64,000 bases of DNA from Escherichia coli O157:H7 str. 2011EL-2287 (lineage in GTDB: Bacteria; Pseudomonadota; Gammaproteobacteria; Enterobacterales; Enterobacteriaceae). The notes below the pieces were generated by a model. The model saw only the letters and a program-made list of their open reading frames with translations, did no database searches and was not told the DNA's origin. The stretch lies in NCBI GenBank assembly GCA_000614405.2, contig GCA_000614405.2_3612.1, one strand, 5' to 3'. Position numbers and translations under genes: made by a program. Shown here in pieces: positions 4,772-59,987 of the stretch; position 1 is the first letter of the stretch; each line of letters opens with the position of its first letter.

Positions 4772-6517
4772 ATGGCGCAAGACATGACAAGCTTTGAGCA
4801 GGCGGTAGATCAAGTAATTGTTGATTCTGAACGTTTGCACTTGGTTGTCAACGGTAACGCTGTGGATGAAGTTGTCGTAGAGGATGGGACCACCATCCCT
4901 ACGGTACGAAAAGCCATGCTTGACAACCTTTATTTTAAAACGCCACCGATCCCTTGGGCGTATGGTGCATCCACAACAGTTTTTAACCAGCTGTACGAGT
5001 TTAAAGGGGACACAGGCCCTCAGTGGTGGTACGCTCCCGCAGCATCAAAATCTAACCCGGTTAGAATGCCAGCAGATCCTTCACAATCTCCAAACTGGAG
5101 ATTATATACCGACTCTGCAGTAATGGCAAAATACTACGCAAAACTTAACAGCCCGAGGTTCGAAGGTGACCCACGAGTACCTACACCTCCAATGGACGAT
5201 AAGTCAGAGTCCATAGCAAACACAGAGTTTGTTGTTGACTATGTTGATAGCATATTTAAAGCCATGGAGGGGATGAAAGTTACTGTAGGGTCTTTGGTGG
5301 TAAAAGGTCTTACAGAACTCGCTAACACTATAGTTGGTGGCACCCTTACCTTACATGGACCTGTTAATGGGGCAGATTCTACTGCACGCTTTAGGAATCT
5401 AATCCTCACGGCAAATACTTCTACACTTACTTTTGCGTGGAGCGATCCTAAGCATGCAGACTGGAGAAGTACAGAGCTGCAACCTCATGAAGTGTCCACC
5501 CACAGGGTTATAGCTGACACTATAACTTCTGGGAAACCAGTGGCTAATAATAACGATGTGCATTTTGATGGTCTGGGTAATAACTTTTTTGACTACGTGT
5601 ACATTCGTGGTAATGCCATGAAGGCAGCAACCGAACCGACATTGCAGGTCGATGGGACCACCAGGGTTAAGAACCTTGAGGTGACAGGTACCGTTACAGG
5701 GATAACATACTCTGTCGATGGCACCATGATCTACCCTAGCTATATTGAAAGCACGGGTGATGCATTGATAAATGGCGATTTGGAGGTTGGCGGGTCTGTA
5801 GTTATTCGAGGTACAGCCTCTATCCAAAATATAGCTCTGAATACTCTAAGAGTCAATGAGCGTGCAACTTTTGAAGGAGAAGGGCTTACAGCCAATAAAG
5901 GTACAATTACCGAGCTAACCACCACCACTTTAACTGCAACAACTGCAAACTCTGAAAACTGCAACATTACCAGAAACTTGCAGGTAAATGGAGATGTTAG
6001 TTTAAACGCCGCAGGGACTGGCACCACCCACCTTCACAACCTTGAAATATCCGGCACAGTGACCGGGTGGCTGCCAGACTTCTCTAATGTCAACTTTGTC
6101 TGTAATGGCATTAACTCCAGTGGTAAGATAACCACCTCTCAAGAAATTGAGGCGGGTAAAACCATTACTGCCCCTACTTTCCACGCAGGAAAGGTAGATT
6201 TTGACTTAGAGGAGGTTGACGCGTCCAGTGGGACATGGACACCTAACGGGCAGGCCAGCATGTATGTTGTCCACTCGAAAGGGGATTTTACAATAGGACA
6301 GTGGCCTGGGACATCAGCGGAAGATAAACCTTATCCATTCACTGCAGTTATCTATGTCATTCAGGATGCTGTAGGTCACAACGTGACTTTGCACGATAAG
6401 TATGCTATCCTGTCGGCAACACCTGTTATTAACAACAAGGCTAACAGTGTTACCTTGCTGCAATTAACGTATTGTGGTGTTGGTGATATTGTAGACGTAG
6501 TAATTGCACAACGTTAA
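4772..6517 (+). CDS. beta-rich tail fibre / tail spike-like protein
   Basis: Repetitive Thr/Gly/Val-rich segments (VTGTVTG, TTTTLTATTAN) typical of fibre shafts; located in tail module. Confidence 0.5.
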   Translation: MAQDMTSFEQAVDQVIVDSERLHLVVNGNAVDEVVVEDGTTIPTVRKAMLDNLYFKTPPIPWAYGASTTVFNQLYEFKGDTGPQWWYAPAASKSNPVRMPADPSQSPNWRLYTDSAVMAKYYAKLNSPRFEGDPRVPTPPMDDKSESIANTEFVVDYVDSIFKAMEGMKVTVGSLVVKGLTELANTIVGGTLTLHGPVNGADSTARFRNLILTANTSTLTFAWSDPKHADWRSTELQPHEVSTHRVIADTITSGKPVANNNDVHFDGLGNNFFDYVYIRGNAMKAATEPTLQVDGTTRVKNLEVTGTVTGITYSVDGTMIYPSYIESTGDALINGDLEVGGSVVIRGTASIQNIALNTLRVNERATFEGEGLTANKGTITELTTTTLTATTANSENCNITRNLQVNGDVSLNAAGTGTTHLHNLEISGTVTGWLPDFSNVNFVCNGINSSGKITTSQEIEAGKTITAPTFHAGKVDFDLEEVDASSGTWTPNGQASMYVVHSKGDFTIGQWPGTSAEDKPYPFTAVIYVIQDAVGHNVTLHDKYAILSATPVINNKANSVTLLQLTYCGVGDIVDVVIAQR

Positions 6518-6565: not shown

Positions 6566-9500
6566 ATGCTTCCAATCCCTTTGCTAAAACTTGGTCGTCA
6601 TTTCCTCGATAAGAGGGGTGGAATTAAGGAACTTGCTGTTCTGTCATACCCAATAGACAACAGTGATGGTACAAGCAACACAGTATCCTATGTAAATAGC
6701 TTAGCTATACTTTTTGATGATGGTCAGCTTAATATTACTGGCTATAATAGGTTCGGAGAGTGTCGGACTGGAGATCTTGATACAATAAACTATCCTAATG
6801 AGGCAGCTTGGAACGTAGACCATGTTTGGAGAGCTGACCGTGCATTTGTAATCCGCACATTCGATAATAAATTTTTCTATATTGGTTGCACAGCTGGTCT
6901 TATCGGATCGGAGGCAGCAGGTGGAAACGATGTTTGTGTCAGAGAGTGGACACCTTTGCCGGAACAGATCGTAACAGGGTTGCATTTGGACACCCATCCT
7001 GAGAGACTTGTTGAAGTAATGGGTGGCGTAAACAATACAGTGTGGGTAATTGCTGCACCAGAGGCTGATGGTATGCTTCACCTGTACGGCTCTGGCAATA
7101 ATACTTACGGCTCTCTTCATGTTGACAAAAGTCAACACGCTACTCCAGTTAAGATAGGTGAAACATCTGAAAGTCCAGAGACAGGTCCTTGGAAAAATCC
7201 AAGAATTAATTGTGAAGTTCATGACAACTCGGTTATTTTTGGTGGTCCTAACGGATTCTGGATTGCAGGTTATGATTTCTTAAGAAATAACAGCAAAAAC
7301 ACACTAGTTTATCCAGCCGAGCATGTGACTCTTGACCAGTTTAAAGGCATCCCGGTGGGCGAGACATGGAAAGGGTTCATGTGTGGACCTAATGGTGCAA
7401 TTATAGCCACAGAAAGGATGCACAAACCTGATGACCAACAGCTTGTTAATGTGTTTTATGGTCAGGATGTTTGGGGTGACGACACGTGGAGAAGCCTTAA
7501 CATCACCTATACCCATGAAGTAATTATGGCTCGCGGGTACGGGACTAGTGGAATTTTCTTCAATAATGGTACAAAACAGTACCGTGGTTTCTCCAGAAAC
7601 CTGTGTAACGATATTGGTGCTCAATCTGCTAATAATAGTCCTAGGGCCAATTTTATTCATTACAGAGCGCTGGCAACAGCTAAGTTTGTTGAACAGACAG
7701 AGCCAGTAAGCTGGACAGAAAGCGTTTATTTTCAAGGGATCCACAGGGAAGGTTTCTTAGGCACATTCTGTGTGGTAAATGGAAAGCTTTGGTGGTCAGG
7801 AATACCACGTGGTAGTTTTTCAGGATCTAATAACCTCTTTGGCGGCAGACTTAACAGCCAAGGGTTCACAGAGATTCCGGAGAATTGGTATAAAAATGTC
7901 CCGGTAGATAGCTGGGGTATCGAAGACATCTTTGATGTCAATGGTGTGAGCAATGTTAGCAACATTTACATCGGAGATACTGTCAAGATGAAATTGAAAC
8001 CTCAGCCGGAGGGTGCTACGTTCATTATTGACAAGATTGAGTTGGTAAATGCTGCAGGCACTGTTGTTACAGATGCAAACTATCAGTTCTCCACTAACTG
8101 GAACCATGGTGGTGCTAACGAAGTTGTGGTCACCCAGTATAACCGTAACATCAACAGACGTGGTTTGTATTCTATCAAGATCACCTACCATGACAAGCAT
8201 GGCACTGGAAGAACCTATACGACAAGGACTTTGAACTGGAACACTATAGTTCCTGCGTATCCGTCCAACGGCAAGTGGCATACCGTTGGTAGAAACAAGC
8301 AGTTCCATGTTAACGATACTGTATACTTTGGGCTGAATGGGACCCAGCCTGCAGTAGAAGGGGATACATCGTATATGGTCAGACTCCACAGAATGGATGC
8401 TGGATCAGTCACTTATGATGTGACCCAAGAGATCTACGATCAAAGACGCGCCACGTATGACAATATTGTGAAAACACAAGCCTTGTGGGAGTTCAATCCT
8501 AATGGCAAGGGTGGTAAAATGTTGCAGGTTAATGAGCAGAACGGAACGTCGTTGACTGTTCACGAACACCCAGACCCTTGGCCTGATCCTGGAAAACCTC
8601 ACCCGGGAGCTCGTACACTGAAAATTGTCAGCCATGATGCAGGATATTTCGGAATACGCTGGGAAGCTACAGTAAGATATGTCGACGGGACAACAAACAA
8701 CATAGGGATTACACTTGGCGGCACTAGTGAAGATAACTCGCTGAAAATTGCCTACACGCCCAGAGGTATCTCTATTGATAATATGGATGTTGTTCGCAAT
8801 GGCTACGGCGATGTGAATGTCAAAGTTACTCTTGGCGAACATCTTGGTGGGGAAAGGATCATCATGTATGCCTTTGATCATGATCCACGCACCAATGGAA
8901 CTTATGCAAATCAGGCATGGAGTTACCTGATAAATGCACCTGAGCCGAATACTAAAGAGTTCTACTATGGTATGAAGCGAGATGTGTGCAAGAAAACAGG
9001 AACACATGACTGGATTGCTATCTGCGTTAAAGATGAGCGCACAGCTTGGGATGAGCCTGTTAACAGATGGTTCATAGGTATTCCTACCAGAAGTGATAAG
9101 TATGTCGCAGAATATATTGTATGCATGGGCGGTACCAACCTAAACATGTGTTGGAACGAAGATGTAAACAAATACTCTGATTATGACTATATGAGGGATT
9201 ACTCTTGTAATTTGTGGTTTAACCAAACTACAGGTTACCCTCCAAGACAGGCAAGGGTAAATCCTGCAATCTTTACAGATACTCAGGTTTTCTTGACAAA
9301 ACAGGCAAACGAGGTTCAGACCTTCAAGAATAACTATGACCCTAACAAGTGGTTCTATAATTGTTACGGGGCATACTTTTGGGGGCCTGCTGAACTGCCT
9401 GACAGCGGTTCTTGCTTCGAGGCTGCAACCTACGGCAGCGACTATATCATGGGACAGGTCAAGAAGTACAAGATGATCCCAGGGCCTGAAACTTTAGGTA

Positions 9501-12202
9501 ACGCTGTTGACCCATACATAAATTTCGCAGCTTTGCATGCGAATATGGATGGTGCAAGGTATCCGTTCGACGTTCCAGTTGCCAATGGGTACAAACGTGT
9601 TGTGATGATCATTAAGTGCGACCTGATAGGTAAACAAGTTCTTGCAGAAAACGGGACATCCACACATCCTTTTGAGATCGCTCTGCACTATCAGTTTGCT
9701 GACTCACCTTTTGCAGGGGATAAGAGAATATCTGATACAGACGCACAGCGTTGTAAGAAAGTATTGTTGGGTGCAGGTTGGTGGTGGTATGAGTTTGATT
9801 TAACAGATAAGTTCACAGATGATACCAAGACTCTCACAGGTATCCGTCTGGATCTTGGTGAGAACATGCACAAAGCTGTTTGTGATGGCACCTACGGTGA
9901 TCCTACAGTATACTTGAAGTATGTCTCTCTTGAGCATCCAGAGGATGCCGTAATCGGTCCTAAACTGAAATTATTCGGCGCATGGATTGCCAAGGATAGA
10001 GTAGGTATGGGTAAGAAAGTGAGAGGATTCCTGATAGATGCAGGAACAGAGGACATGCTGGTTAATGCAGTGTGGCCTACGCTAGAAGGAACTGCCTACA
10101 ACAATGCAGCCAGGTCTATAAATTGGTTCAACATTCACAGAGCTATGTGGACTACCAACTGCTACTTGTGGAGAGAGCTCAACGATCAGGCCTTTGGCTT
10201 TAGTAACGGCAGAAGGATGGCGATCATCTGCTGGACAACACTGCAAAGATGTTATGACCATGACTACGAGATTGGCGGTAGAGCATGGAAAGATATCCGA
10301 GATAGAATCATATACAATTTTGCAGATGATAATGGTGGCGGGGCATATAACTTTGGCACAAGCCGACTTATCCACTTGAACGGATCTTCAGCCTACAAGA
10401 AAGAAGGTTACTCTGGATCCATGATCGAGTGGGGTCTGGTGAAAGATGCTCGCGTATTGATGGGCCAGCAACTTGCTGCCGCAATAGGTCCCAGCGCAGT
10501 GCAGTCGGTTAAACCAGCGTGGTTTGATATTCCATTGTGGTCACCCGGAACACCGGGAACTGCTGCAATCAACCCTACCACTGGGGATCTAGAAATCTCC
10601 TGGGAGGACTTGAAGCAGGTCGGCGGTTGGGACAAAACAGGGTATCAGGTTCAGTGGTGGAGAGCTGATGGATCTTTAGCTGCTGATGAGTTTGTTAAGG
10701 ACAATTTCTACACTATGTCCTCTGCAAAAGCACAGCAATTATTTGGTCAGGCCACTCCGTCAACAATCACCATGTCTATGTGCTGTAAAGACAACAGGAC
10801 TGGAGCTTTGGGGCCAAGGGTTGCTAAGGTTTTCTCAGGTATTAAATGGAATCTTCCTGTTCAAAGTGTTTCATGGAAGCAAATAGGTGATAACAAGCTG
10901 CTGGTTACCCCTGCCTGTCAGTTCAACGCAACTCTTAACGTTAATCCTGCTGTTGCGGCAAACTCAGCTAAAGCTTCTGACTTCTCTGTGTCTAACACCG
11001 CTATGGCAGATGTGAGGAAGATTGACACACTGAACGCCAGAATTACCTGTAAAAACACTTATGGCACATTCCAGATCATCAACAACTTCACAGATGCTGA
11101 TTCTAAGGTAGTGAGGACAGCAAGCCAGACTTTGAGTTTAGGAACTCTGGCCTATGCGGCCCTGATCACTGAACAGTCGGCAACACTCCAAGGAGGTGGT
11201 GTAGGCAAGTCCATTACAACACCTGTGTGGAAGCCAAATGAGTGGGTTGTGTTTGATTTGACTGTGGACTTCTCCAGCGATAATAACTGGACATGGGTAA
11301 GGAATTGTTTGTCACAGTTGATGGGCGGTCCAAGCTCCGTTAGTGATAGTCACGACTCTACTGACCCGAGTGTGTTCCAGGTAGGTAAAACTCACCCAGA
11401 GACTGGAGAAACGTTGCCTGACAGGAAGTATGCTTTGGTTTGCATCTCTTACGGAAAAGCAGATGTCACCTTCTCAGGGACACACACTTATAACGGAACT
11501 TACAACTTCTCAAGGAAGTATAGTCTCAAAGCAGGGAACATTATAGACGAGGTTGGTGTGCTGTATAATCCGGGCAACGGCATAGGGATTGTTGGTGGTA
11601 AACTGCAGATGCAGGAACCTTCTATTACCCCTTCCAACGTAGCCGGGATTAGAAAGACTTGGGAAAGTAGTAATACCAACATTGCAACAGTGGATGCCAC
11701 CACAGGACTGGTAACATTTAAAGCTACTGGGAATGTCACCATAAAGTTTGTAGTTACTGATGATGCAGGGCGCAAAACGTCTTCAACATCTTTTACTGTC
11801 AAACAGATGGCACCACAGTGGAGAATGTGGATAGGTACAGCAACAAACGGGGCATACCCTAATCCGGCAGGTACTTCTGGTATGAAGACTTTCTCTACAA
11901 GCAAACCGATGGAGTACGGCAGCGGTCCTAAGGTAGGGCAGATGGTGTACTTTGGTGCGTATATTCCTGAAATTATAGGGCTTCCGAGAAGTCAGCTTCA
12001 GTTGCTGTTTGGGGCTGGTGTTGACGATCTTGCCACTTTCGGGTATAGCGACAACATCGAGGCTGCAAGGAGTTCAGGATGGGTAGGGTTCAGAATGGAG
12101 CCTGGAAAGGAAGGCAGGATTCTAGGGACAGCCTCTATAGGTGTTATGTTCCCTGGTGACCAGCAGTATCGTCTAGAAGCCTACGCAACCTTTTCTCGTT
12201 AA
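6566..12202 (+). CDS. giant virion/tail-associated protein with Ig-like (Big_2-type) domain
   Basis: 1878-aa ORF; Ig-like segment (TWESSNTNIATVDATTGLVTFKATGNVTIKFVVTDDAG); N-terminal Gly-rich repeats; last gene of late operon. Confidence 0.55.
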   Translation: MLPIPLLKLGRHFLDKRGGIKELAVLSYPIDNSDGTSNTVSYVNSLAILFDDGQLNITGYNRFGECRTGDLDTINYPNEAAWNVDHVWRADRAFVIRTFDNKFFYIGCTAGLIGSEAAGGNDVCVREWTPLPEQIVTGLHLDTHPERLVEVMGGVNNTVWVIAAPEADGMLHLYGSGNNTYGSLHVDKSQHATPVKIGETSESPETGPWKNPRINCEVHDNSVIFGGPNGFWIAGYDFLRNNSKNTLVYPAEHVTLDQFKGIPVGETWKGFMCGPNGAIIATERMHKPDDQQLVNVFYGQDVWGDDTWRSLNITYTHEVIMARGYGTSGIFFNNGTKQYRGFSRNLCNDIGAQSANNSPRANFIHYRALATAKFVEQTEPVSWTESVYFQGIHREGFLGTFCVVNGKLWWSGIPRGSFSGSNNLFGGRLNSQGFTEIPENWYKNVPVDSWGIEDIFDVNGVSNVSNIYIGDTVKMKLKPQPEGATFIIDKIELVNAAGTVVTDANYQFSTNWNHGGANEVVVTQYNRNINRRGLYSIKITYHDKHGTGRTYTTRTLNWNTIVPAYPSNGKWHTVGRNKQFHVNDTVYFGLNGTQPAVEGDTSYMVRLHRMDAGSVTYDVTQEIYDQRRATYDNIVKTQALWEFNPNGKGGKMLQVNEQNGTSLTVHEHPDPWPDPGKPHPGARTLKIVSHDAGYFGIRWEATVRYVDGTTNNIGITLGGTSEDNSLKIAYTPRGISIDNMDVVRNGYGDVNVKVTLGEHLGGERIIMYAFDHDPRTNGTYANQAWSYLINAPEPNTKEFYYGMKRDVCKKTGTHDWIAICVKDERTAWDEPVNRWFIGIPTRSDKYVAEYIVCMGGTNLNMCWNEDVNKYSDYDYMRDYSCNLWFNQTTGYPPRQARVNPAIFTDTQVFLTKQANEVQTFKNNYDPNKWFYNCYGAYFWGPAELPDSGSCFEAATYGSDYIMGQVKKYKMIPGPETLGNAVDPYINFAALHANMDGARYPFDVPVANGYKRVVMIIKCDLIGKQVLAENGTSTHPFEIALHYQFADSPFAGDKRISDTDAQRCKKVLLGAGWWWYEFDLTDKFTDDTKTLTGIRLDLGENMHKAVCDGTYGDPTVYLKYVSLEHPEDAVIGPKLKLFGAWIAKDRVGMGKKVRGFLIDAGTEDMLVNAVWPTLEGTAYNNAARSINWFNIHRAMWTTNCYLWRELNDQAFGFSNGRRMAIICWTTLQRCYDHDYEIGGRAWKDIRDRIIYNFADDNGGGAYNFGTSRLIHLNGSSAYKKEGYSGSMIEWGLVKDARVLMGQQLAAAIGPSAVQSVKPAWFDIPLWSPGTPGTAAINPTTGDLEISWEDLKQVGGWDKTGYQVQWWRADGSLAADEFVKDNFYTMSSAKAQQLFGQATPSTITMSMCCKDNRTGALGPRVAKVFSGIKWNLPVQSVSWKQIGDNKLLVTPACQFNATLNVNPAVAANSAKASDFSVSNTAMADVRKIDTLNARITCKNTYGTFQIINNFTDADSKVVRTASQTLSLGTLAYAALITEQSATLQGGGVGKSITTPVWKPNEWVVFDLTVDFSSDNNWTWVRNCLSQLMGGPSSVSDSHDSTDPSVFQVGKTHPETGETLPDRKYALVCISYGKADVTFSGTHTYNGTYNFSRKYSLKAGNIIDEVGVLYNPGNGIGIVGGKLQMQEPSITPSNVAGIRKTWESSNTNIATVDATTGLVTFKATGNVTIKFVVTDDAGRKTSSTSFTVKQMAPQWRMWIGTATNGAYPNPAGTSGMKTFSTSKPMEYGSGPKVGQMVYFGAYIPEIIGLPRSQLQLLFGAGVDDLATFGYSDNIEAARSSGWVGFRMEPGKEGRILGTASIGVMFPGDQQYRLEAYATFSR

Positions 12203-16459: not shown

Positions 16460-17941
16460 TTACTTAGCGTACTCGATTAATTCCACAGTTTTCCCAAAGC
16501 TAGGGATATAATTTTTATTATACCCTTCGGTGAGAACCCATAAAGTATCGTACTTTTTCCACTTGTTGTCAACAGCCTTTTGTTCAAAGTTATGCTCAAA
16601 GTATAGGTCGGTCAGGACGATGACATCTTTTGCATTCGGTATGTTGGCATCCAGATACTCGAACACGCAAGCAGCTGTTGTGCCCCATGTTGAGTGTACC
16701 TCATAGTTGATCATCTCGTCTATGTTGCCGCGAGTGTATACTTTAACCTCTCCGACTTCAGTTGACCAACAGAACATTGTAACCTTAAACTCTTTATACA
16801 GATTGCACAATCCGGTGATTTCATTGAACATTTTCTTTAAAGTTCTTTGAGAGATCGAGCCAGAAACGTCTAAAGCTACCACAATATCTATGGTGTTTTC
16901 CGGATTACGACCAGGAACAATAACGTGCTGGTTCTTGTTTATAGCCCCAACTTTTCGCATTGTGCTGGTCAAAGACCCAGATCGGCGACCAGGTTTTCTG
17001 TAGGTCAGTTCAGCCTTTCGTTTAGACAACATGCGTTGCTTGATGATGTCTATATAATTAATTACAGGCTTACCTCTATTCTTGACAAACTCACGAACCG
17101 CCTCAGGGCAACGGCCTCCGGAAGCTTGCATTGCTGCCTCCAGCATGTCACCAGAGTCCTGCATGGCCTGATCTTTATCAGATTGACTGATTACAGGTTG
17201 TGGCTGATCATACCCCATAGCCTTTCCAAGATCATCACTGGTGCCACCGTTACCACTCATGTGATCATCGGTTTGTCGCTTATCTTCTTGAGAGTTCTCA
17301 CCTTTACCGCTCTTACTTTTACCGTTATTCTGATCTCTTTGCTTATCAAGAACTGCATAAACGTTCTCAGCAATCCATCCATGAAACTTCATGTCGCAGT
17401 AGCAGCTGGCTAAGAAGCCAAAAGGCTTACCTTTCACGAACGTAGTGCTTTTCCCCTTCGAGAAGAAAACACAAGGAGGTTTGCTAAAGTCAACCACAAG
17501 GCCTGTGTTGATAACGTGATCACAAGCAATATTGAACAGTTCCGGCTCAAAGCTTTTACCACGGACCAGGTGATCACAGATAATATGCCCCACCTCATGC
17601 GACAGAAGAAAGGCCACCTCTTTCACAGATTTGGGGGAATAGAAAACCTCAGCCATCTCAAACTGCTTGTCAGTTAGAGAGGCCTTAAGAATAGCCTTGC
17701 GTTCATCAGCCAATCCCATAATGAACTCAGGGCTGTAATAGATGCGTTTATGGTCGGTTGCCATGGTGGAGCACCATGTGTGGTTTTCTACGAACTGCAA
17801 CCCTGACAGCAGTGTGCCATAAAACGGCAGCTTTTCAAGGAGATACATACGTGCAGCCTGCAACATTCTCAGGGCATCATCTTTCTGTGAGGCAACGATT
17901 TCTGAACTTCTGCTATCCATTAAAACTCCAGAAGGGGCCAT
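16460..17941 (-). CDS. vWA-domain protein with N-terminal HExxH metallopeptidase-like domain (DUF2201-type)
   Basis: HEVGHIICDH zinc-binding motif in N-terminal half; MIDAS motif IVVALDVSGSI in C-terminal half. Confidence 0.75.
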   Translation of the reverse strand: MAPSGVLMDSRSSEIVASQKDDALRMLQAARMYLLEKLPFYGTLLSGLQFVENHTWCSTMATDHKRIYYSPEFIMGLADERKAILKASLTDKQFEMAEVFYSPKSVKEVAFLLSHEVGHIICDHLVRGKSFEPELFNIACDHVINTGLVVDFSKPPCVFFSKGKSTTFVKGKPFGFLASCYCDMKFHGWIAENVYAVLDKQRDQNNGKSKSGKGENSQEDKRQTDDHMSGNGGTSDDLGKAMGYDQPQPVISQSDKDQAMQDSGDMLEAAMQASGGRCPEAVREFVKNRGKPVINYIDIIKQRMLSKRKAELTYRKPGRRSGSLTSTMRKVGAINKNQHVIVPGRNPENTIDIVVALDVSGSISQRTLKKMFNEITGLCNLYKEFKVTMFCWSTEVGEVKVYTRGNIDEMINYEVHSTWGTTAACVFEYLDANIPNAKDVIVLTDLYFEHNFEQKAVDNKWKKYDTLWVLTEGYNKNYIPSFGKTVELIEYAK

Positions 17942-17953
17942 TGGCCCCTGTCA

Positions 17954-18997
17954 TTATTTAACGTGTTTGAAAATACCTGCCAACTCGGTCATTGTCATGC
18001 GGGTGGTCTTCATAAGATCTGTCATAGCTTTCTCCATAATTGGAGATACTACCATAAAGTTTCCTTTAGTGAAACCTTTATTCCAGTCAGTCACCAACAG
18101 CGGTTTAAGTCCAGCTCCGAGACGTTCACCAGTTAAAGCACAGCATTTGCGAATATACGAACCCTTAAATTGGCTGAACGACAGATCAACTTTCATACCT
18201 GCATCGTAGAACGTTTGACAATAGAAAGTGTAAGCCTTAGCAATCTCAACATCATCAGGCAGTGCAGGAACCTCTTCTGCAATCTCCTCTTCGACCTCCT
18301 GAGGCTCTTTTTCTTCTTCAGAGGTCTGTTCTTCAATTTCTTCTGTCACAGTCTCGTTTACGATGTCTGAAATGTGTTTGTTGGCTGCACGATCAGCCAT
18401 GAAATTTTTAAAATCCTGCATCGGTGACATATCTTCTTCCTCTTCGTCAAATAGTGCTAGTTTATCTTCTTCTGTCCCGTATTGCAAGATGAAATCTTCA
18501 AAAGTATAATCACCTTTCAATTTCTCCATACGCTCTTCGCTCAGGTGGAGCATCATCTGCTGGACAATTTTTCGATCAGTTTTGTCTTTAATCAGGATTG
18601 CAGTCTTTTTATCTACCAGACAGTCTTTCAGAGCATTGCACCTCAACCCTACCACACAACAATTGTCAATTGCGTAAGGACCTTCATCATCTATACGCTC
18701 CAGAGATGGGTAGAAAGGATTTCCCAGCCCGTTTTCATCTGTGTGCATGTCAAAAGGTATAAGGGTATAGTCGCATACTCCATCTCCTAAAAGTTTTTTA
18801 CCAAATAGGAGGTATTCTTCCCATGACAGGTCGAACTCTATATCTCGTTTCCGTGCGTTATTCTGTTTGCGTCTATATTTTTTGAGCAAGCGCTCTAACT
18901 CTTCTGGTGTATAATATTTTTCAAGATTCATGAGTCGTCTCTCGTGCTCTGTAAGTGAAGAAATCGTATCAATTGTCTCAACAGATGTCAACATCAA
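17954..18997 (-). CDS. HNH-like nuclease-fold protein with acidic linker
   Basis: SLERIDDEGPYAIDNCCVVGLRCNALK resembles HNH/His-Me finger core; long Glu-rich linker; second related C-terminal segment. Confidence 0.45.
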   Translation of the reverse strand: MMLTSVETIDTISSLTEHERRLMNLEKYYTPEELERLLKKYRRKQNNARKRDIEFDLSWEEYLLFGKKLLGDGVCDYTLIPFDMHTDENGLGNPFYPSLERIDDEGPYAIDNCCVVGLRCNALKDCLVDKKTAILIKDKTDRKIVQQMMLHLSEERMEKLKGDYTFEDFILQYGTEEDKLALFDEEEEDMSPMQDFKNFMADRAANKHISDIVNETVTEEIEEQTSEEEKEPQEVEEEIAEEVPALPDDVEIAKAYTFYCQTFYDAGMKVDLSFSQFKGSYIRKCCALTGERLGAGLKPLLVTDWNKGFTKGNFMVVSPIMEKAMTDLMKTTRMTMTELAGIFKHVK

Positions 18998-19004
18998 AAA
19001 CGTG

Positions 19005-19033
19005 TTGACTTTACTCTAACTCCACAATATAGT
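19005..19033 (+). promoter_or_regulatory. sigma70-like promoter for 19074 operon
   Basis: TTGACT-N17-TATAGT followed by TAGGAG RBS and ATG at 19074. Confidence 0.5.
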
Positions 19034-19073
19034 GCACCCATTCGAAAGAAAACTAACATAGGAGCACTTACTT

Positions 19074-19973
19074 ATGGCAAATCTTAACAGTTTTAGTACG
19101 CGGTGGAAACAGGACATAACAACCAATCTTTCAGCTGGGGACATCCTTTCTGCAATTTACGAGGCTTTAGATGATAAAGCTACTTCAAAAGCGGTTTGTA
19201 CCAACCCACTAATTCCTGTAGTGATGAAGGTTATTGAGCGTAGATTGGTATCTGGGTCTGATAAGTGGACATATTTAGATAATGAAGGACACACCTATTC
19301 CAATGGGTACGTCGATATAAAAGTAGAATACGCGGTATCATACCGCCGGAGCGGTTCTGTAACTTTCAACTTCTCTGGAGGTTTTCGATCTCTGGCTACC
19401 TCACCTTTTGTTTCCTCAGAGGAGAAGTATGAGCTGCCATTTCTTTGGATGATGGCTAACGCGACAGGAAAAACCCCCGTTAGCATCCGAGTAAAATACA
19501 ACTACAACGGATCTAGTAAGATCTGTGCCGAAAGTGTCTCAGCAAGTTTTTATTTTGTGATGGGGGATGGAATCCTCAAACATATAAAGATGTGCGATAT
19601 GCATGATGTTATAAATGAAGTGACTGATAAGAATGTTCTAGTGAAAGACCTCAACAATTTTTATACACCCGGAGACTATTACGTCAGCCGTCCACTGTGC
19701 ATCTTTAATGCCGCACACCCTCTAGGTGAGTATTTGATCGCCAATAGCGATATTGCCAATAACCGCTTCGAGGTAGCAAGAGTTCAGAATGAGGTATTGA
19801 CATCTTGCAAGAGCGGTGATAAGTTTACCGAAGAAGAGATGGGTGTTTTAGAAATGATGGGATATAAGTGTAGCCTTTGGGTAGATGAGGTGTTTAATGA
19901 TTGCATCTATGGACAGGATATTTACCCATTAAAGAAGTATACTGATACAAGTTTAATTTATGCGAGGGTTTGA
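19074..19973 (+). CDS. hypothetical protein
   Basis: 299-aa ORF with RBS, first gene of rightward block. Confidence 0.45.
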   Translation: MANLNSFSTRWKQDITTNLSAGDILSAIYEALDDKATSKAVCTNPLIPVVMKVIERRLVSGSDKWTYLDNEGHTYSNGYVDIKVEYAVSYRRSGSVTFNFSGGFRSLATSPFVSSEEKYELPFLWMMANATGKTPVSIRVKYNYNGSSKICAESVSASFYFVMGDGILKHIKMCDMHDVINEVTDKNVLVKDLNNFYTPGDYYVSRPLCIFNAAHPLGEYLIANSDIANNRFEVARVQNEVLTSCKSGDKFTEEEMGVLEMMGYKCSLWVDEVFNDCIYGQDIYPLKKYTDTSLIYARV

Positions 19974-20248
19974 CTATGATGAAGGCATGTGGTAATGTAT
20001 ATTACGTCGGTGAACATGTTCAGGCAGACAGTGTGTGGAAATCTATTAAGTCCACCACTGACGATGCCTTTCTGAGTGGACTATGTTTCCCCAATCCGGG
20101 AGACATCCTCCCTCATCCTGGAGATTTTGTTGTCAACAAGATGGACGGTTATACCGTGTGCCTGATGGTTGAAAAAATCTTTTTAGACACTAGACACAAT
20201 CACCGTCTTGTGTTAAAATTTCAAGAATGTAAAATGACAATTGCCTAA
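19970..20248 (+). CDS. hypothetical protein
   Basis: ORF overlapping upstream stop. Confidence 0.35.
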   Translation: MTMMKACGNVYYVGEHVQADSVWKSIKSTTDDAFLSGLCFPNPGDILPHPGDFVVNKMDGYTVCLMVEKIFLDTRHNHRLVLKFQECKMTIA

Positions 20249-20618
20249 GGAGACCTTACCGATGTCTAAAGTTACTTATCGTGCAGCTATTTACTGCAAT
20301 GAACACCCAATCAATAATGATGGTCACTGCCTTTTTAAAGAAAATCAATTGGGCTGTATTGTCCTCCCTGATGAAGGGAAAGGTTATCTGATTGCATTGA
20401 CAGGGTTTGAACCTGAAGCTCTGGAAGCCAATCTGGACTACCTGGTAGAAGAGGGTGCTGCAGACCTGGTTGCCAATGGCTTCTCCATAAGCCTTGACGA
20501 AGTGGAGCGCTTCATGGGCAATTACCGTGTAGTGCGTGAGTTTACTATCGAGGTGGAAACTCCAGAGTGGGGTAGCCATGAAACTAATGCCGAAGAAAAA
20601 GAAGAGGAGGTAGAATAA
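20241..20618 (+). CDS. hypothetical acidic protein
   Basis: ORF with RBS AAGGAGA. Confidence 0.4.
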   Translation: MPKETLPMSKVTYRAAIYCNEHPINNDGHCLFKENQLGCIVLPDEGKGYLIALTGFEPEALEANLDYLVEEGAADLVANGFSISLDEVERFMGNYRVVREFTIEVETPEWGSHETNAEEKEEEVE

Positions 20619-20875
20619 TGAAAGTGCAGATCTTGACTAATGCCGAGAAGATGTTTATTGAAGATACACCTTTTGAAGCTGGTGAGCTACAGTTCATTTA
20701 TTTTGTTGACTTAGATAAGGTGTTCCCTGCACTGAATCTTGGTCTGGATGAAGTTCCTCATAAGGTTTTGTGCCAAGTTGTTCGTGCATTAGCGGCAGAT
20801 GGGGAGTTCCACACCCTTGAAGATGTCCAGACCTACGGGTATCTTGAACTACAACGAGAAGAAGAGGTGGACTGA
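20618..20875 (+). CDS. hypothetical protein
   Basis: ORF, start overlaps upstream stop. Confidence 0.4.
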   Translation: MKVQILTNAEKMFIEDTPFEAGELQFIYFVDLDKVFPALNLGLDEVPHKVLCQVVRALAADGEFHTLEDVQTYGYLELQREEEVD

Positions 20876-20877
20876 TA

Positions 20878-21258
20878 ATGGCCCTGTGGAAGACAACAGT
20901 TGACCTTCATGATCAGTGGTTAGGACGCATCACTGAAGACGGGAAGCTAGTGGAGTGGGACAATAAGCATGTTAGCGAGTTGGCAAGTATTGTGGCTGGC
21001 AAGTTACGCTCCAAGTTCCCTGAACAACTGGATCCTGATAGTTCAAAGTTCGATCCTGAGTTGGAGGATGTTGTATACTACTTCGACACCGTTGATGACT
21101 ACGACGCGTGGTTTGCAGCACGGGAACTTTACCCACAAGGCTCTGCTATGCGTCAGATGGAAGAAGATTATCCTCCGTGTGAGCAATTCAATAGTGCAAT
21201 GACTTGCCTCTATGATTGGGCAGATAAGAACCTTGTCTGGATTCGGACTGCATTTTAG
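20878..21258 (+). CDS. hypothetical protein
   Basis: ORF in operon. Confidence 0.4.
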   Translation: MALWKTTVDLHDQWLGRITEDGKLVEWDNKHVSELASIVAGKLRSKFPEQLDPDSSKFDPELEDVVYYFDTVDDYDAWFAARELYPQGSAMRQMEEDYPPCEQFNSAMTCLYDWADKNLVWIRTAF

Positions 21259-21302
21259 TGGGCAGGAATGGCGGCAAGGATGCTGCTTAAGGAGTAGTAG
21301 AG

Positions 21303-21572
21303 ATGTTATACCAGCAATATGAACTTCGTGCAGAAAAAGAGTTAAATTTTGACAAAGATATTCACAGATATTATTATGGGAAAGTTAGAGGGCAAGCAAG
21401 AAAGTGTACTCCAACACTCTTTTATGCCAGCAGACGACTAGCGCCAGAAGAGGCAACAGCAGAAAGGGTTGCGTACAACTGGAGAGTCACGTATGATATT
21501 GACAGATTCGATGTGATATCTGTTTTGGAAAACTTTGAAAACACTTACACACAAGTAGAGGACTTTTACTAA
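21303..21572 (+). CDS. hypothetical protein
   Basis: ORF in operon. Confidence 0.4.
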   Translation: MLYQQYELRAEKELNFDKDIHRYYYGKVRGQARKCTPTLFYASRRLAPEEATAERVAYNWRVTYDIDRFDVISVLENFENTYTQVEDFY

Positions 21573-22756
21573 TGTCAAGAAACGTATTCGAAAGTGGTCA
21601 AATCACTGTCCGTGAGTTGCCAGCTATTATTCAGTTTGCCCAACGTCATAGCCGATCTGTCCTAATTTTGGGACCAATGGGTGTGGGTAAAAGCCAGGTG
21701 ATGAAGCAGATCGCTGATAATATGTTCGGTGAGCGAGATGACAACCTTGTTGACGTGCGACTGTCAGATAAAGATCCTGCCGACTTATCTGGGCTACCTA
21801 TCCCTGTAGAAGCGGATGGAACTACACGTACAGTGTTTGCAATTCCAGAATTTTGGCCTGCGGATCCTGACTGGAGCGGAATTATCTTTCTGGATGAGCT
21901 CACTCATGCAGATAACTACCTGCAAAAGGTTGCAATGCAAATTATGCTTGACCACAAGTGCGGCACCTATGCATTCCCTAAGGGTTCTGTTTTTGTGGCT
22001 GCGGGTAACCGTTCTACAGATGGTGCGGTTCTTTCGGCGCTCGAAGCCCCTCTGGCTAACCGTTTTATCATTGTAGAGGTTACAAGCAATGCAGAGGTGT
22101 TTATTGAGGACTACGCATTCCTCAACGGGGTTCACTCCTCTGTGATTGGGTATCTGAAAAGAGTTCCATCAGCTATTGATAATTATGAGGCTATGGCTGA
22201 GATTAATTGTCCATCTTTTGCCACACCACGATCTTGGGTTGCTGCATCTGACATCTTGCACGATTTTGACAGCGGTATTATTTCTGACGCTATGGCCCGT
22301 GTTCTTCTGCAAGGTGCTATTGGTCACACTGCAGCGGTAGAGATCTGGACATACCACACCAAGAAACGCAATTTACCGGAAATCGGTCGGATTATGGCAG
22401 GTGGCTGCAAAGAATACATGGGTCCTAAGCAGCCAGACATTTTGTGGATTCTTGGATCTGAAGGTTGTATCGCTATTCGTAACATGATGGAAAATGCAAG
22501 TATCTCAGACGAAGATCTTGTCAGCTGCGTGGCAAACTTCCTAGATTTCCTTTGGGAAAACTTCAAGGACGAGAACCGAGATTTTGTATTCTCAGTCTTT
22601 ATGGCGATGATGAAACCTAATGCCTTAGGAAATGCCTTGCTTATCGGTAAAGGGCGTGACAAGATTGTTGCTCAGCTGATCAAAGCATACCCAAACCTGA
22701 TGAAGATTGTAAAAGAGTTTGGTGAAGAGTTTAGCGCCATTTTGGCTAAAGCTTAA
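21572..22756 (+). CDS. MoxR-type AAA+ ATPase
   Basis: Walker A GPMGVGKS, Walker B IIFLDELTHA, AAA_5-like organisation. Confidence 0.75.
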   Translation: MSRNVFESGQITVRELPAIIQFAQRHSRSVLILGPMGVGKSQVMKQIADNMFGERDDNLVDVRLSDKDPADLSGLPIPVEADGTTRTVFAIPEFWPADPDWSGIIFLDELTHADNYLQKVAMQIMLDHKCGTYAFPKGSVFVAAGNRSTDGAVLSALEAPLANRFIIVEVTSNAEVFIEDYAFLNGVHSSVIGYLKRVPSAIDNYEAMAEINCPSFATPRSWVAASDILHDFDSGIISDAMARVLLQGAIGHTAAVEIWTYHTKKRNLPEIGRIMAGGCKEYMGPKQPDILWILGSEGCIAIRNMMENASISDEDLVSCVANFLDFLWENFKDENRDFVFSVFMAMMKPNALGNALLIGKGRDKIVAQLIKAYPNLMKIVKEFGEEFSAILAKA

Positions 22757-23156: not shown

Positions 23157-23187
23157 CTCCCCCGCTTCGGCGGGGATTTTCTATTTG
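23157..23187 (+). terminator. rho-independent terminator
   Basis: Hairpin CCCCCGC-TTCG-GCGGGG followed by ATTTTCTATTT. Confidence 0.55.
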
Positions 23188-59675: not shown

Positions 59676-59987
59676 CTATACCCATGAGGGCTTATCAAGG
59701 TTGGAGTAGCTAAAAGGTGTCAAAAGGTGACTGTCAAAATCTCTCAAACTATCCAAATCTTTTTCCTCGTCCTGACACCATCTGTGCCTACATTTATTGT
59801 TGTAGTGCATAGAATGCATAGCGTTCTGCAACTTAACAGGCACAATTGATTCAGGAGTAGTTAGTATTGTTGGGTATGCCAGAACCACCTCAAACAGTGG
59901 AAACACATCGAAACTAAAATCTACCTCTGCAGAGGTTGATGGCATGTAGGAGTATTTAGCCGTCTTTGTAGACATAATCCACCTCAC
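59676..59987 (-). CDS. hypothetical protein
   Basis: ORF; overlapping start/stop with next gene. Confidence 0.4.
   Translation of the reverse strand: MRWIMSTKTAKYSYMPSTSAEVDFSFDVFPLFEVVLAYPTILTTPESIVPVKLQNAMHSMHYNNKCRHRWCQDEEKDLDSLRDFDSHLLTPFSYSNLDKPSWV

Follow-up and report, generated by a model that had tools for sequence, protein, structure and literature searches.

A rearranged MoxR-type ATPase and VWA metallopeptidase-like gene module in an rV5-like Escherichia coli phage

The window, a 64,000-nucleotide stretch of DNA from an assembly of E. coli O157:H7 str. 2011EL-2287, is the sequence of a Vequintavirus with 98.7% identity to phage RudolfGeigy. Two of its genes, coding for a DUF2201 protein and for a MoxR-clade AAA+ ATPase, descend from one conserved two-gene module of the N4 gp24/gp25 type and, judged from their sequences, have co-diverged since they were split, with every catalytic motif kept. 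The pair in this rV5-like E. coli phage is a rearranged member of a known, mechanistically uncharacterized module. We verified the coordinates and strands of both ORFs (Table 1). The genes lie on opposite strands and are transcribed divergently, with 3,630 nt between them that hold one minus strand gene and six plus strand ORFs. The original prediction had noticed that this layout is odd for a MoxR–VWA-type pair, and the locus census described below bears this out.

Table 1. Features of the DUF2201–ATPase region and of a distal ORF in the window
Feature	Position	Strand	Description
DUF2201 protein gene	16460..17941	-	N-terminal putative zincin metallopeptidase domain, acidic linker, C-terminal VWA domain
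GC-rich hairpin GGGGCCAAUGGCCCC	17933..17949	-	immediately 5' of DUF2201 ribosome-binding site and start codon
"Anti-sigma factor" gene, Srd-like or endonuclease-VII-like	17954..18931	-	first gene of leftward unit
Bidirectional control region	18963..19033	.	promoter consensus matches only
Six intervening ORFs of rightward unit	19074..21572	+	299, 92, 125, 85, 126 and 89 aa
Promoter-like site TTGACA-17-TATTAT	21349..21377	+	11/12 consensus matches
MoxR-clade AAA+ ATPase gene, orthologue of bas54_0063	21572..22756	+	motifs, model, homologues
Terminator-like hairpin CCCCGCTTCGGCGGGG with T-rich tail	23160..23175	+	after 126-aa gene 3' of ATPase
99-aa ORF, bas54_0140 orthologue	59676..59975	-	position, length, identity to bas58_0139

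Domains and motifs of the two proteins

The DUF2201 ORF (493 aa) contains both domains of its family (PF13203 and PF09967) above the gathering scores, in the order N-terminal peptidase-like, then C-terminal VWA-like. The match to DUF2201_N (E = 8e-29, 101.5 bits, cutoff 23.2) is stronger than that to the VWA-like domain (E = 3.2e-11, 43.9 bits, cutoff 26.4). An HEVGH sequence at residues 115–119 provides the HExxH motif, and the MIDAS site is complete (D358-x-S360-G361-S362, T421, D445). In an alignment of 30 family sequences H115, E116, H119, H124, D141, D358, S360, S362, T421 and D445 are invariant. Members of this set also give weak Pfam matches to Peptidase_M48 (12/30), SprT-like (9/30), M78 (4/30) and VWA_CoxE (17/30). 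The C-terminal domain has a VWA fold, with NorD and BatB among its matches. Two fold searches, both dominated by such VWA matches, did not recover a zincin fold for the N-terminal domain, and a sequence search of the PDB with the DUF2201 protein returned no matches; we describe this domain as a putative zincin metallopeptidase. The acidic linker (about residues 209–235) is of low confidence. Translation probably starts at the ATG at 17920, which affords a protein of 486 aa as in the BASEL phage annotation, since this codon is preceded by GGAG 5 nt upstream while the ATG at 17941 sits within the GC hairpin.

The ATPase (394 aa) produced only sub-threshold Pfam matches (AAA_5: E = 0.0075, 16.7 bits, cutoff 22). 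Homologues that are about 34% identical to it (E about 1e-44) bear AAA_3, AAA_5 and bpMoxR, a PDB search with the family profile returned midasin as the top match (3e-10), and Foldseek with an AlphaFold2 model (pLDDT 83) found NorQ and CbbQ2 as the best matches (E = 3e-8, target-normalised TM 0.64). Together, these three lines of evidence support assignment of the protein as a divergent member of the MoxR clade of AAA+ ATPases. The sequence contains Walker A (G37-x-G39-K40-S41), Walker B (D108-E109), sensor 1 (N146), an arginine finger (R164 in PLANRF) and sensor 2 (R220 in ATPRSW), and Walker A/B, the sensors and the arginine finger are invariant in 20 homologues with identities down to 30%. 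In the AlphaFold2 model, a beta-hairpin (strands 76–81 and 84–89) is inserted between helix 69–73 and the Walker B strand, and a pre-sensor-1 hairpin of short strands lies ahead of strand 138–146. The former insert, in helix 2, is the feature that defines the MoxR clade (PMC7159879). Both identities in the original prediction, a vWA metallopeptidase-like protein and a MoxR-type ATPase, are therefore sound, the former on Pfam evidence and the latter on homologues, the midasin match and the AlphaFold model; its AAA_5/MoxR label was correct, even if from Pfam alone it would have been a guess.

Gene order and transcription

A DUF2201 gene is present in all 72 IMG/VR loci that were anchored on the ATPase and extended 1.5 kb or more downstream of it. 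In all of them but those of the split lineage and one with a 517-nt gap, it follows the ATPase gene directly, in the same orientation. Among DUF2201-anchored bacterial loci, the ATPase gene is upstream on the same strand in 73 of 73, and the same holds for 17 of 17 N4-like viral loci; a few gaps in these sets measure 0.4–0.8 kb. The order ATPase then DUF2201 also recurs in N4 (gp24 then gp25), GAP32, phiKp_21, Plateaulakevirus, A73, Certrevirus CR3 and the Sulfurivermis chromosome. These counts agree with the expectation in the original prediction that such pairs are normally adjacent and co-oriented: elsewhere the ATPase family always adjoins a DUF2201 VWA gene, whereas the window has its two genes on opposite strands, 3.6 kb apart. 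Among the sampled loci, the divergent layout is confined to Vequintavirus, Seunavirus 4MG, BIS47 and Mydovirus; in Vequintavirus, Seunavirus and Mydovirus it is derived.

The minus strand gene between the two had been called HNH-like, which is loosely right, as its PHROG matches (phrog_3118 with 9e-111, phrog_4592, phrog_1400 and phrog_1035) carry the labels HNH, Srd anti-sigma and endonuclease VII, although the gene has no Pfam match. It is annotated as "anti-sigma factor" in BASEL, and its longest ORF reaches a TTG at 18997. The six plus strand ORFs matched no Pfam family and only function-unknown or label-only PHROG families; they had been counted correctly, but the description as small does not fit the 299-aa member. 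The sixth shares one base with the ATPase start codon. The orthologues of all seven genes in phage Bas54 are non-essential and unaffected on strain CFE311 (log2FC -0.08 for the minus strand gene).

Two promoter-like sites, TTGACA-17-TACGAT on the minus strand (18991 to 18963) and TTGACT-17-TATAGT on the plus strand (19005 to 19033), are arranged back to back with 13 bp between their -35 boxes, which form the arms of an inverted repeat (GTCAACA...TGTTGAC, 18987–19009). Since the DUF2201 and ATPase genes are each downstream of one of these sigma-70-like promoter-like sites, they would not belong to unrelated transcription units. Of all promoter-like sites in the 7.3-kb region, TTGACA-17-TATTAT, 195 nt 5' of the ATPase start, fits the consensus best; it may be an extra promoter for this gene. 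The hairpin that follows the 126-aa gene likely marks the end of the rightward early unit. The hairpin upstream of the DUF2201 gene (MFE -15.2 kcal/mol, z = -1.8) corresponds in position to the terminator-like hairpins found ahead of DUF2201 genes in other lineages, with analogues in 4MG, BIS47, A73, L010, Plateaulakevirus and GAP32. Such a hairpin is present in most lineages in which the two genes are adjacent, and therefore partial transcriptional insulation is not new to the window phage.

Defence phenotype and competing explanations

The original prediction considered the role of the pair in a phage to be unknown. This view is outdated by a HIDEN-SEQ preprint (10.1101/2025.11.20.689424), in which knockout of bas54_0063 (MoxR) rendered Bas54 sensitive to the defence system DS-28. 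The authors name 0063 and 0140 as anti-DS-28 genes, not 0055; they do not treat 0063 and 0055 as a pair and report no peptidase knockout. In the HIDEN-SEQ data, neither orthologue is required on E. coli K-12: the ATPase gene tolerates insertions at 60 of its 64 TA sites and the peptidase gene at 81 of 86. Depletion on CFE311 amounts to log2FC -7.23 (q = 0) for the ATPase gene and -2.20 (q = 0.009) for the peptidase gene, values from a sheet that is inconsistent at source (title "K-12_vs_CFE303", command line with the "311" library). Disruptions of the peptidase gene are thus depleted about 4.6-fold, about 30 times less than those of the ATPase gene. This effect is not polar, since genes 0054 and 0056 on either side show no effect on the same strain. 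Because the table contains 21 significantly depleted features of about 229, and the value of -2.2 falls within a mild-effect class common to a run of unrelated genes (0123–0129), the peptidase depletion lends weak support to the pair. The orthologue of 0140 in the window is the 99-aa ORF, identified by a gene-length series that matches Bas54 and Bas58 and by 97% identity to bas58_0139; its tie to the ATPase is solely the common DS-28 phenotype of the orthologues.

We favor, with slightly better than even confidence, the explanation that the two genes encode the halves of a two-protein machine of ancient origin and usually encoded in one operon (the N4 gp24/gp25 family), here split by relocation of the DUF2201 gene, that couples ATP-driven remodelling to cleavage of a client. 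The DUF2201 gene and its preceding hairpin would have moved together in an ancestor shared by Vequintavirus, Seunavirus and Mydovirus, leaving the slot just 3' of the ATPase gene for the other arm of this divergent early region, and host RNA polymerase would still turn on both genes together from the back-to-back promoters. By analogy with NorQ–NorD and other MoxR–VWA couples, the ATPase would form a hexameric ring and the DUF2201 protein would dock on it through its VWA domain, whose MIDAS site grips a client peptide; ATP hydrolysis would remodel the client or the DUF2201 linker, and the zincin domain might then cut the client. According to the preprint experiments on Bas54, the module has an accessory function, dispensable on K-12, and the ATPase is required to escape the HEPN-nuclease system DS-28 (10.1101/2025.11.20.689424).

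That the genes are unrelated neighbors, whose domains happen to pair elsewhere, is very improbable. Only their separation and opposite orientation speak for this idea, which is contradicted by the census and by a mirror-tree comparison: the identities of the two proteins, compared pair by pair in 17 lineages, correlate with r = 0.93, a value reached by 0 of 5000 Mantel permutations, even if such a correlation is expected for any two vertically inherited genes. Furthermore, each gene is orthologous over its full length to its counterpart in the adjacent pair of the sister genera A73 and Certrevirus (33–37% identity, with at least 97% of the length covered). More plausible, though still doubtful, is functional uncoupling, by which the ATPase would after the split have taken up a job that does not need DUF2201, acting on its own or together with some other protein, for example the 99-aa protein, leaving the DUF2201 protein a separate or minor role. 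The split arrangement itself, the unequal depletion on the same host and the listing of 0063 and 0140 as the two genes required against DS-28 are consistent with this idea, as is the restriction of the 99-aa gene to Vequintavirus (118 records), which would make it a lineage-specific innovation layered on an old ATPase. On the other hand, both proteins keep all catalytic and MIDAS residues, and their divergence is matched in the split lineages (identity between window and Seunavirus-type proteins: ATPase 0.50–0.52, DUF2201 0.46–0.48). Every split-lineage genome sampled retains the DUF2201 gene, whose depletion on the same host is still significant. In more than 160 loci, we found no lineage with one gene of the pair but not the other. 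Since the ATPase gene is depleted far more than the peptidase gene, partial functional uncoupling is possible. The original choice between independent regulation and no functional pair was too stark given the common origin, the co-divergence, the retained motifs and the back-to-back promoters.

An assembly or maturation chaperone is an unlikely third explanation. The pair would mainly mature a phage or host complex or insert a metal into it, in the manner of NorQ–NorD, CbbQ–CbbO or the p618–p892 tail-development pair of a virus of archaea, and the DS-28 phenotype would arise indirectly when a misassembled phage product triggers the defence. The nearest solved structures, NorQ and CbbQ2, are indeed metal-insertion and activase chaperones, and a viral MoxR–VWA chaperone pair is known from Acidianus two-tailed virus (ATV, as cited in PMC7159879). 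The presence of gp24/gp25 in the core of all N4-like phages (PMC4193335) also fits housekeeping better than the countering of one rare system. However, that both genes are fully dispensable on K-12 without fitness cost argues against an essential assembly role in this phage, and the invariant HExxH motif suggests proteolysis rather than metal delivery.

Relation to known systems

The Bas54 genes bas54_0063 ("MoxR ATPase") and bas54_0055 ("putative metallopeptidase") are direct orthologues by genus, gene order and gene lengths and show no difference of consequence in sequence. N4 gp24 (AAA ATPase) and gp25 (vWFA protein) form a homologous module that our family profiles match with 6e-58 and 5e-80, despite identities of only about 21–29% to the window proteins. 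They are middle genes and belong to the 14 genes that make up the core of N4-like phages (Schitoviridae; PMC4193335, PMC2784036), and the literature that we searched provided no function for either. In both phages the module is surrounded by early or middle genes, with rIIA, rIIB and a helicase gene downstream of it; the N4 genes are adjacent and co-oriented with a 168-nt gap, while the window pair is divergent and 3.6 kb apart.

NorQ–NorD, CbbQ–CbbO, CoxD–CoxE and RavA–ViaA share the MoxR-clade fold and all motifs of the ATPase as well as the MIDAS VWA domain of the partner. In contrast to these couples from respiratory and carbon-fixation operons, the module described here is encoded by a phage, and the place of the target-binding domain is taken in its VWA protein by an HExxH peptidase-like domain at the N terminus. 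The archaeal Acidianus two-tailed virus likewise encodes such a pair, p618 (MoxR) and p892 (VWA); as cited in PMC7159879, they are reported in connection with extracellular tail development, and this citation describes no peptidase domain. Finally, the MoxR–vWA ternary conflict systems (Kaur et al. 2020, PMC7159879) also place such a couple in virus–host conflict, often with effector domains, including peptidases, fused to the vWA component (PMC7159879). Those systems serve host defence and include a third component (VMAP, iSTAND, FtsH or a beta-propeller), whereas the phage-encoded MoxR–VWA module consists of two genes and appears to act against host defence.

Identity of the two proteins

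The 6.3-kb region that holds both genes is 98.7% identical to the corresponding region of Escherichia phage RudolfGeigy, and more than 100 further rV5-like phages (Vequintavirus, Vequintavirinae) match likewise. Records of these phages annotate the two products as "putative metallopeptidase" or "VWA-like domain containing protein" and as "MoxR ATPase". Sixteen records from the series MG065646–MG065682, labeled "Campylobacter phage", share 98–100% identity with E. coli rV5-like phages over this region, and their host attribution looks doubtful.

The original prediction had described a vWA-metallopeptidase and a MoxR-type ATPase encoded on opposite strands. Both ORFs are present where it placed them (see the table), and its two labels prove right. 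The 493-aa product scores well over the gathering thresholds of two Pfam domains, DUF2201_N (E = 8e-29, "putative metallopeptidase domain") and DUF2201 (E = 3e-11, "VWA-like domain"). In an alignment of 30 sequences reaching down to about 21% identity, residues H115, E116 and H119 (HExxH), H124 and D141 are invariant, as are the MIDAS residues D358, S360, G361 and S362, plus T421 and D445. G483, near the C-terminus, is invariant too. No structural match was found for the N-terminal domain, and a PDB sequence search with either the whole protein or its N-terminal 197 residues returned nothing. The link of this domain to the zincins is based on the motif and on weak Pfam matches of family members to M48, SprT-like, M78 and M56. 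The true start codon is probably ATG 17920 (486 aa), because GGAG stands 5 nt upstream of it and ATG 17941 sits within a GC hairpin. DUF2201 proteins are often annotated as "HNH endonuclease" or "homing endonuclease" (NC_008720, N4 gp25; NC_019401, GAP32_211; OR805294, ETTORE_0139; PP464953), a label that seems to be inherited from that of PHROG phrog_1314. Since Pfam detects DUF2201_N and DUF2201 but no HNH family in these proteins, this label looks like a propagated mis-annotation.

The 394-aa product matches AAA_5 with E = 0.0075, a weak identification under the Pfam cutoff. Its match in a PDB sequence search is confined to the P-loop region, and NCBIfam returned P-loop noise only. In homologues that align over 85% of the length at about 34% identity, AAA_3 (MoxR family), AAA_5 and bpMoxR are recognized, and a 20-sequence profile of the ATPase has midasin as its top match in the PDB (3e-10). 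The best structural matches of an AlphaFold2 model (pLDDT 83, pTM 0.78) are NorQ from NorQ–NorD complexes and the MoxR-type rubisco activase CbbQ2 (E = 3e-8 to 7e-8). The model includes a helix-2 beta-hairpin insert, which is the defining feature of the MoxR/midasin clade (PMC7159879). Conservation is complete at the Walker A and B motifs, sensor 1, the arginine finger (R164, directly ahead of strand 5) and sensor 2 (R220).

Features of the window, and hairpins preceding DUF2201 in homologous loci (L numbers)
Feature	Position (nt)	Strand	Remarks
DUF2201 gene	16460-17941	-	493 aa; orthologue of bas54_0055
Srd-like gene	17954-18931	-	first gene of leftward arm
299-aa ORF	19074-19973	+	annotated "putative alpha 1-3 fucosyltransferase"
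89-aa ORF	21303-21572	+	
ATPase gene	21572-22756	+	394 aa; orthologue of bas54_0063
Helicase gene	26891 onward	+	orthologue of bas54_0068
99-aa ORF	59676-59975	-	positional orthologue of bas54_0140
Promoter-like site	18991 to 18963	-	TTGACA-17-TACGAT, extended -10; consensus match
Promoter-like site	19005 to 19033	+	TTGACT-17-TATAGT; consensus match
Promoter-like site	21349-21377, 195 nt upstream of ATPase	+	11/12 consensus match
Inverted repeat	18987-19009		GTCAACA-n9-TGTTGAC
DUF2201-preceding hairpin	17933-17949	-	GC-rich, terminator-like
Same, L091	3633-3653		GC-rich, terminator-like
Same, L090	8243-8268		GC-rich, terminator-like
Same, L010	about 11237-11259		GC-rich, terminator-like
Same, L092	about 8148-8167		GC-rich, terminator-like
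Same, L095	about 5249-5269		GC-rich, terminator-like

Gene order and origin of the split

GC skew and the ORF map place a strand switch at about 19.0 kb in the window, from which "-" genes run leftward and "+" genes rightward. The DUF2201 gene is the second gene of the leftward arm and the ATPase gene the seventh of the rightward arm. As predicted, the two lie on opposite strands, separated by 3,630 nt and seven genes. Among the rightward genes, the 299-aa ORF belongs to a PHROG of unknown function; its product has no match in Pfam or NCBIfam, so that the fucosyltransferase annotation is unsupported here. The start codon of the ATPase gene shares one base with the 89-aa ORF, an overlap that suggests translational coupling. 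This ORF is labeled "ATPase" (phrog_13164) in some records; it has no Pfam match.

The expectation that MoxR–VWA pairs are usually adjacent and co-oriented holds strikingly, in censuses anchored on either gene and in named genomes. The nearest homologues outside Vequintavirinae come from phage-like contigs of about 150 kb, with the ATPase directly upstream of the DUF2201 gene. When 80 IMG/VR loci with the ATPase were scanned with a purpose-built DUF2201 profile, the partner was found in 72 of the 72 with at least 1.5 kb of sequence downstream of the ATPase. Over all ATPase-anchored loci, DUF2201 lies downstream on the same strand in 80, nearly always less than 400 nt away; one locus departs from this with a 517-nt gap, and the jumbo phage Ettore does so with 2.9 kb of insertions between the genes. 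In six loci, each of them Vequintavirus or Seunavirus-type, it is found upstream and on the other strand. Because many IMG/VR loci are closely related, the independent evidence amounts to about eight lineages rather than to the locus count. Searching from DUF2201, we found the ATPase upstream on the same strand in every bacterial locus with enough upstream DNA (73/73) and in all N4-like viral loci (17/17), a few gaps measuring 0.4–0.8 kb. Apparent overlaps of the two ORFs in this set are artifacts of stop-to-stop ORFs. Likewise, the seeming fusion of the two genes into one ORF in a MAG of Nitrosomonadales (L156, 4948-7248) is an assembly artifact, as its junction translates to XXXX, a run of N. 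Named examples of the adjacent order are N4 gp24→gp25, GAP32 210→211, phiKp_21, Plateaulakevirus, Escherichia phage A73, Certrevirus CR3 and the chromosome of Sulfurivermis fontis. In N4-like phages, gp24 and gp25 count among the 14 core genes, as middle genes with function given as unknown (PMC4193335, PMC2784036).

Members of Vequintavirinae in which the two genes are still adjacent are Certrevirus (CR3), A73 and the related contig L010. The order is divergent in Vequintavirus, Seunavirus (4MG), the group of Klebsiella phage BIS47 and Mydovirus (Mydo), where an Srd-like gene opens the arm that bears DUF2201. From this distribution, the split is a shared derived character of the divergent sub-clade. 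Identities of the window ATPase and DUF2201 proteins are 0.52 and 0.46 to BIS47, 0.36 and 0.39 to A73, and 0.28 and 0.27 to GAP32. Since the identities to each outgroup match for both proteins, we can rule out independent acquisition of the two genes. Over 17 lineages the identity matrices of the two proteins correlate with r = 0.93, a value reached by none of 5000 Mantel permutations. This correlation shows co-inheritance and does not by itself prove interaction. The window ATPase lies upstream of rIIA, rIIB and the helicase, as in N4. Having kept this N4-like place, it identifies the DUF2201 gene as the one that moved. A simple inversion is ruled out because the orientation of the ATPase relative to rIIA, rIIB and the helicase is unchanged; translocation of the DUF2201 gene together with its hairpin fits better.

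Hairpins and promoter-like sites around the pair

Ahead of the DUF2201 gene stands a GC hairpin, in most cases with a T-run and then GGAG and the start codon after it. It occurs in the split lineages (the window, 4MG, BIS47) and also in the adjacent-order A73, L010, Plateaulakevirus, GAP32 and phiKp_21; in a freshwater group it is followed by a promoter-like site. The hairpins are modestly better than shuffled sequence (z -1.1 to -4.3). Because the element occurs whether or not DUF2201 adjoins the ATPase, we infer that it moved along with the gene. Its sequence differs between lineages and its position does not, which suggests that a partial insulation of DUF2201 from the ATPase is ancestral. 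Such insulation would fit a sub-stoichiometric DUF2201 partner.

The 77-nt gap between the arms, taken together with the 5'-terminal part of the longest leftward ORF, contains the two divergent promoter-like sites, and the leftward one is consistent with the BASEL start of the Srd-like gene. Their -35 boxes, 13 bp apart, form the arms of the inverted repeat, which could also be a candidate binding site for a dimeric regulator. On the rightward arm, a terminator-like hairpin follows the gene next downstream of the ATPase. Taken together, the arrangement is confirmed, and the interpretation first attached to it, that the pair is either independently regulated or not functional as a pair, is supported in part only.

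Counter-defense phenotype and possible mechanism

The HIDEN-SEQ preprint (10.1101/2025.11.20.689424) built transposon libraries in Bas54; this Vequintavirus shares its gene order and gene lengths with the window. On K-12, insertions are tolerated at 60/64 TA sites in bas54_0063 and at 81/86 in bas54_0055, and both genes are non-essential. Knockouts of 0063 and 0140 are reported to become sensitive to DS-28, a defense system from the clinical isolate CFE311, which shows a role of the ATPase against DS-28 in Bas54. The two components of DS-28 are a HEPN-family nuclease and a hypothetical protein (DefensePredictor supplement, PMC13092281). For quantitative comparison we used the resampling table of Extended Data Table 8 ("Data S6"), which is titled "resampling_K-12_vs_CFE303" and names "311" in its command line and data files; its depletion of 0063 and 0140 agrees with the main-text CFE311 result. 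In this table log2FC is -7.23 for the MoxR gene (q = 0), -5.48 for 0140 and -6.32 for helicase 0068, and -2.20 for the metallopeptidase gene 0055 (p = 0.0009, q = 0.009). Since insertions in 0053, 0054 and 0056, which form one unit with 0055, are not depleted, a polar effect on the downstream 0051 (-2.28) can be ruled out. The table holds 21 significantly depleted features, and several unrelated genes lie near -2 as well, so the signal of the peptidase gene, though real, is weak. The orthologue of the 89-aa ORF has log2FC +0.24 and is not needed on CFE311. Helicase 0068, non-essential on K-12, belongs to the same rightward block as the ATPase, downstream of rIIB; its depletion is not discussed in the preprint text available to us. 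The 99-aa ORF of the window is 97% identical to bas58_0139, has no family match and is confined to Vequintavirus (118 records). A PADLOC search with the ATPase, DUF2201 and 99-aa proteins gave no meaningful matches. CRISPRi-ART covers neither N4 nor Vequintavirus genome-wide, and the 138 coding sequences on its gene map of SUSP1 do not amount to a gene set of this size.

In the mechanism that we consider most likely, proposed by analogy to NorQ–NorD and the general MoxR–vWA model (PMC7159879), the ATPase would assemble into a hexamer on which the VWA domain of a co-expressed DUF2201 protein docks, with the MIDAS site holding a client peptide. ATP hydrolysis would then remodel the client or the DUF2201 linker, and the zincin domain might cleave. 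Given the 30-fold difference in depletion between the ATPase and peptidase genes, the main rival reading is a serious possibility: the vequintavirus ATPase would now act largely independently of the DUF2201 protein, perhaps paired with the 99-aa protein. A more speculative reading, which we consider unlikely, runs as follows: gp24/gp25-type modules would be two-polypeptide, ATP-dependent protease-like machines, with a MoxR ring as motor and a VWA-zincin as substrate-holding protease, by which N4-like, Rak2-like jumbo and rV5-like phages dismantle or cleave host immune complexes such as DS-28, the vequintavirus motor being partly rewired to the 99-aa protein. If so, the module would be among the most widespread general counter-defense devices. 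Owing to the natural split, either gene can be removed on its own free of polar complications, which makes the dependence of the ATPase on the VWA-peptidase readily testable. Should this partner prove dispensable, a MoxR ATPase would here have escaped its VWA cofactor; should it be needed, the module would be a candidate counter-defense protease of broad spectrum.

More than 100 GenBank records already carry annotations of both genes, and for one of the two a preprint gives a phenotype. New are the recognition of the two genes as split halves of the gp24/gp25 module, the dating of the split, the conserved hairpin and the weaker peptidase phenotype drawn from the preprint's table. In several large groups of virulent phages, the gp24/gp25-type pair ranks with the best-conserved pairs of non-structural genes, and many bacterial chromosomes carry it as well. 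We found no published mechanism for it in the literature searched, and a search on "DUF2201" yielded nothing relevant. Recognizing the pair connects an unexplained N4-like core module, the recently solved NorQ–NorD structural framework and DS-28 escape in Bas54, which is the first genetic phenotype for this family.

The window pair belongs to the MoxR–VWA class and, within it, to the DUF2201 (N4 gp24/gp25) family, as a rearranged member of a known and mechanistically open group. Unlike the characterized MoxR–VWA chaperone couples, it carries a peptidase-like domain on the VWA subunit and stands in a phage context with an apparent counter-defense role. From all other sampled members of the DUF2201 family, it differs in gene order.
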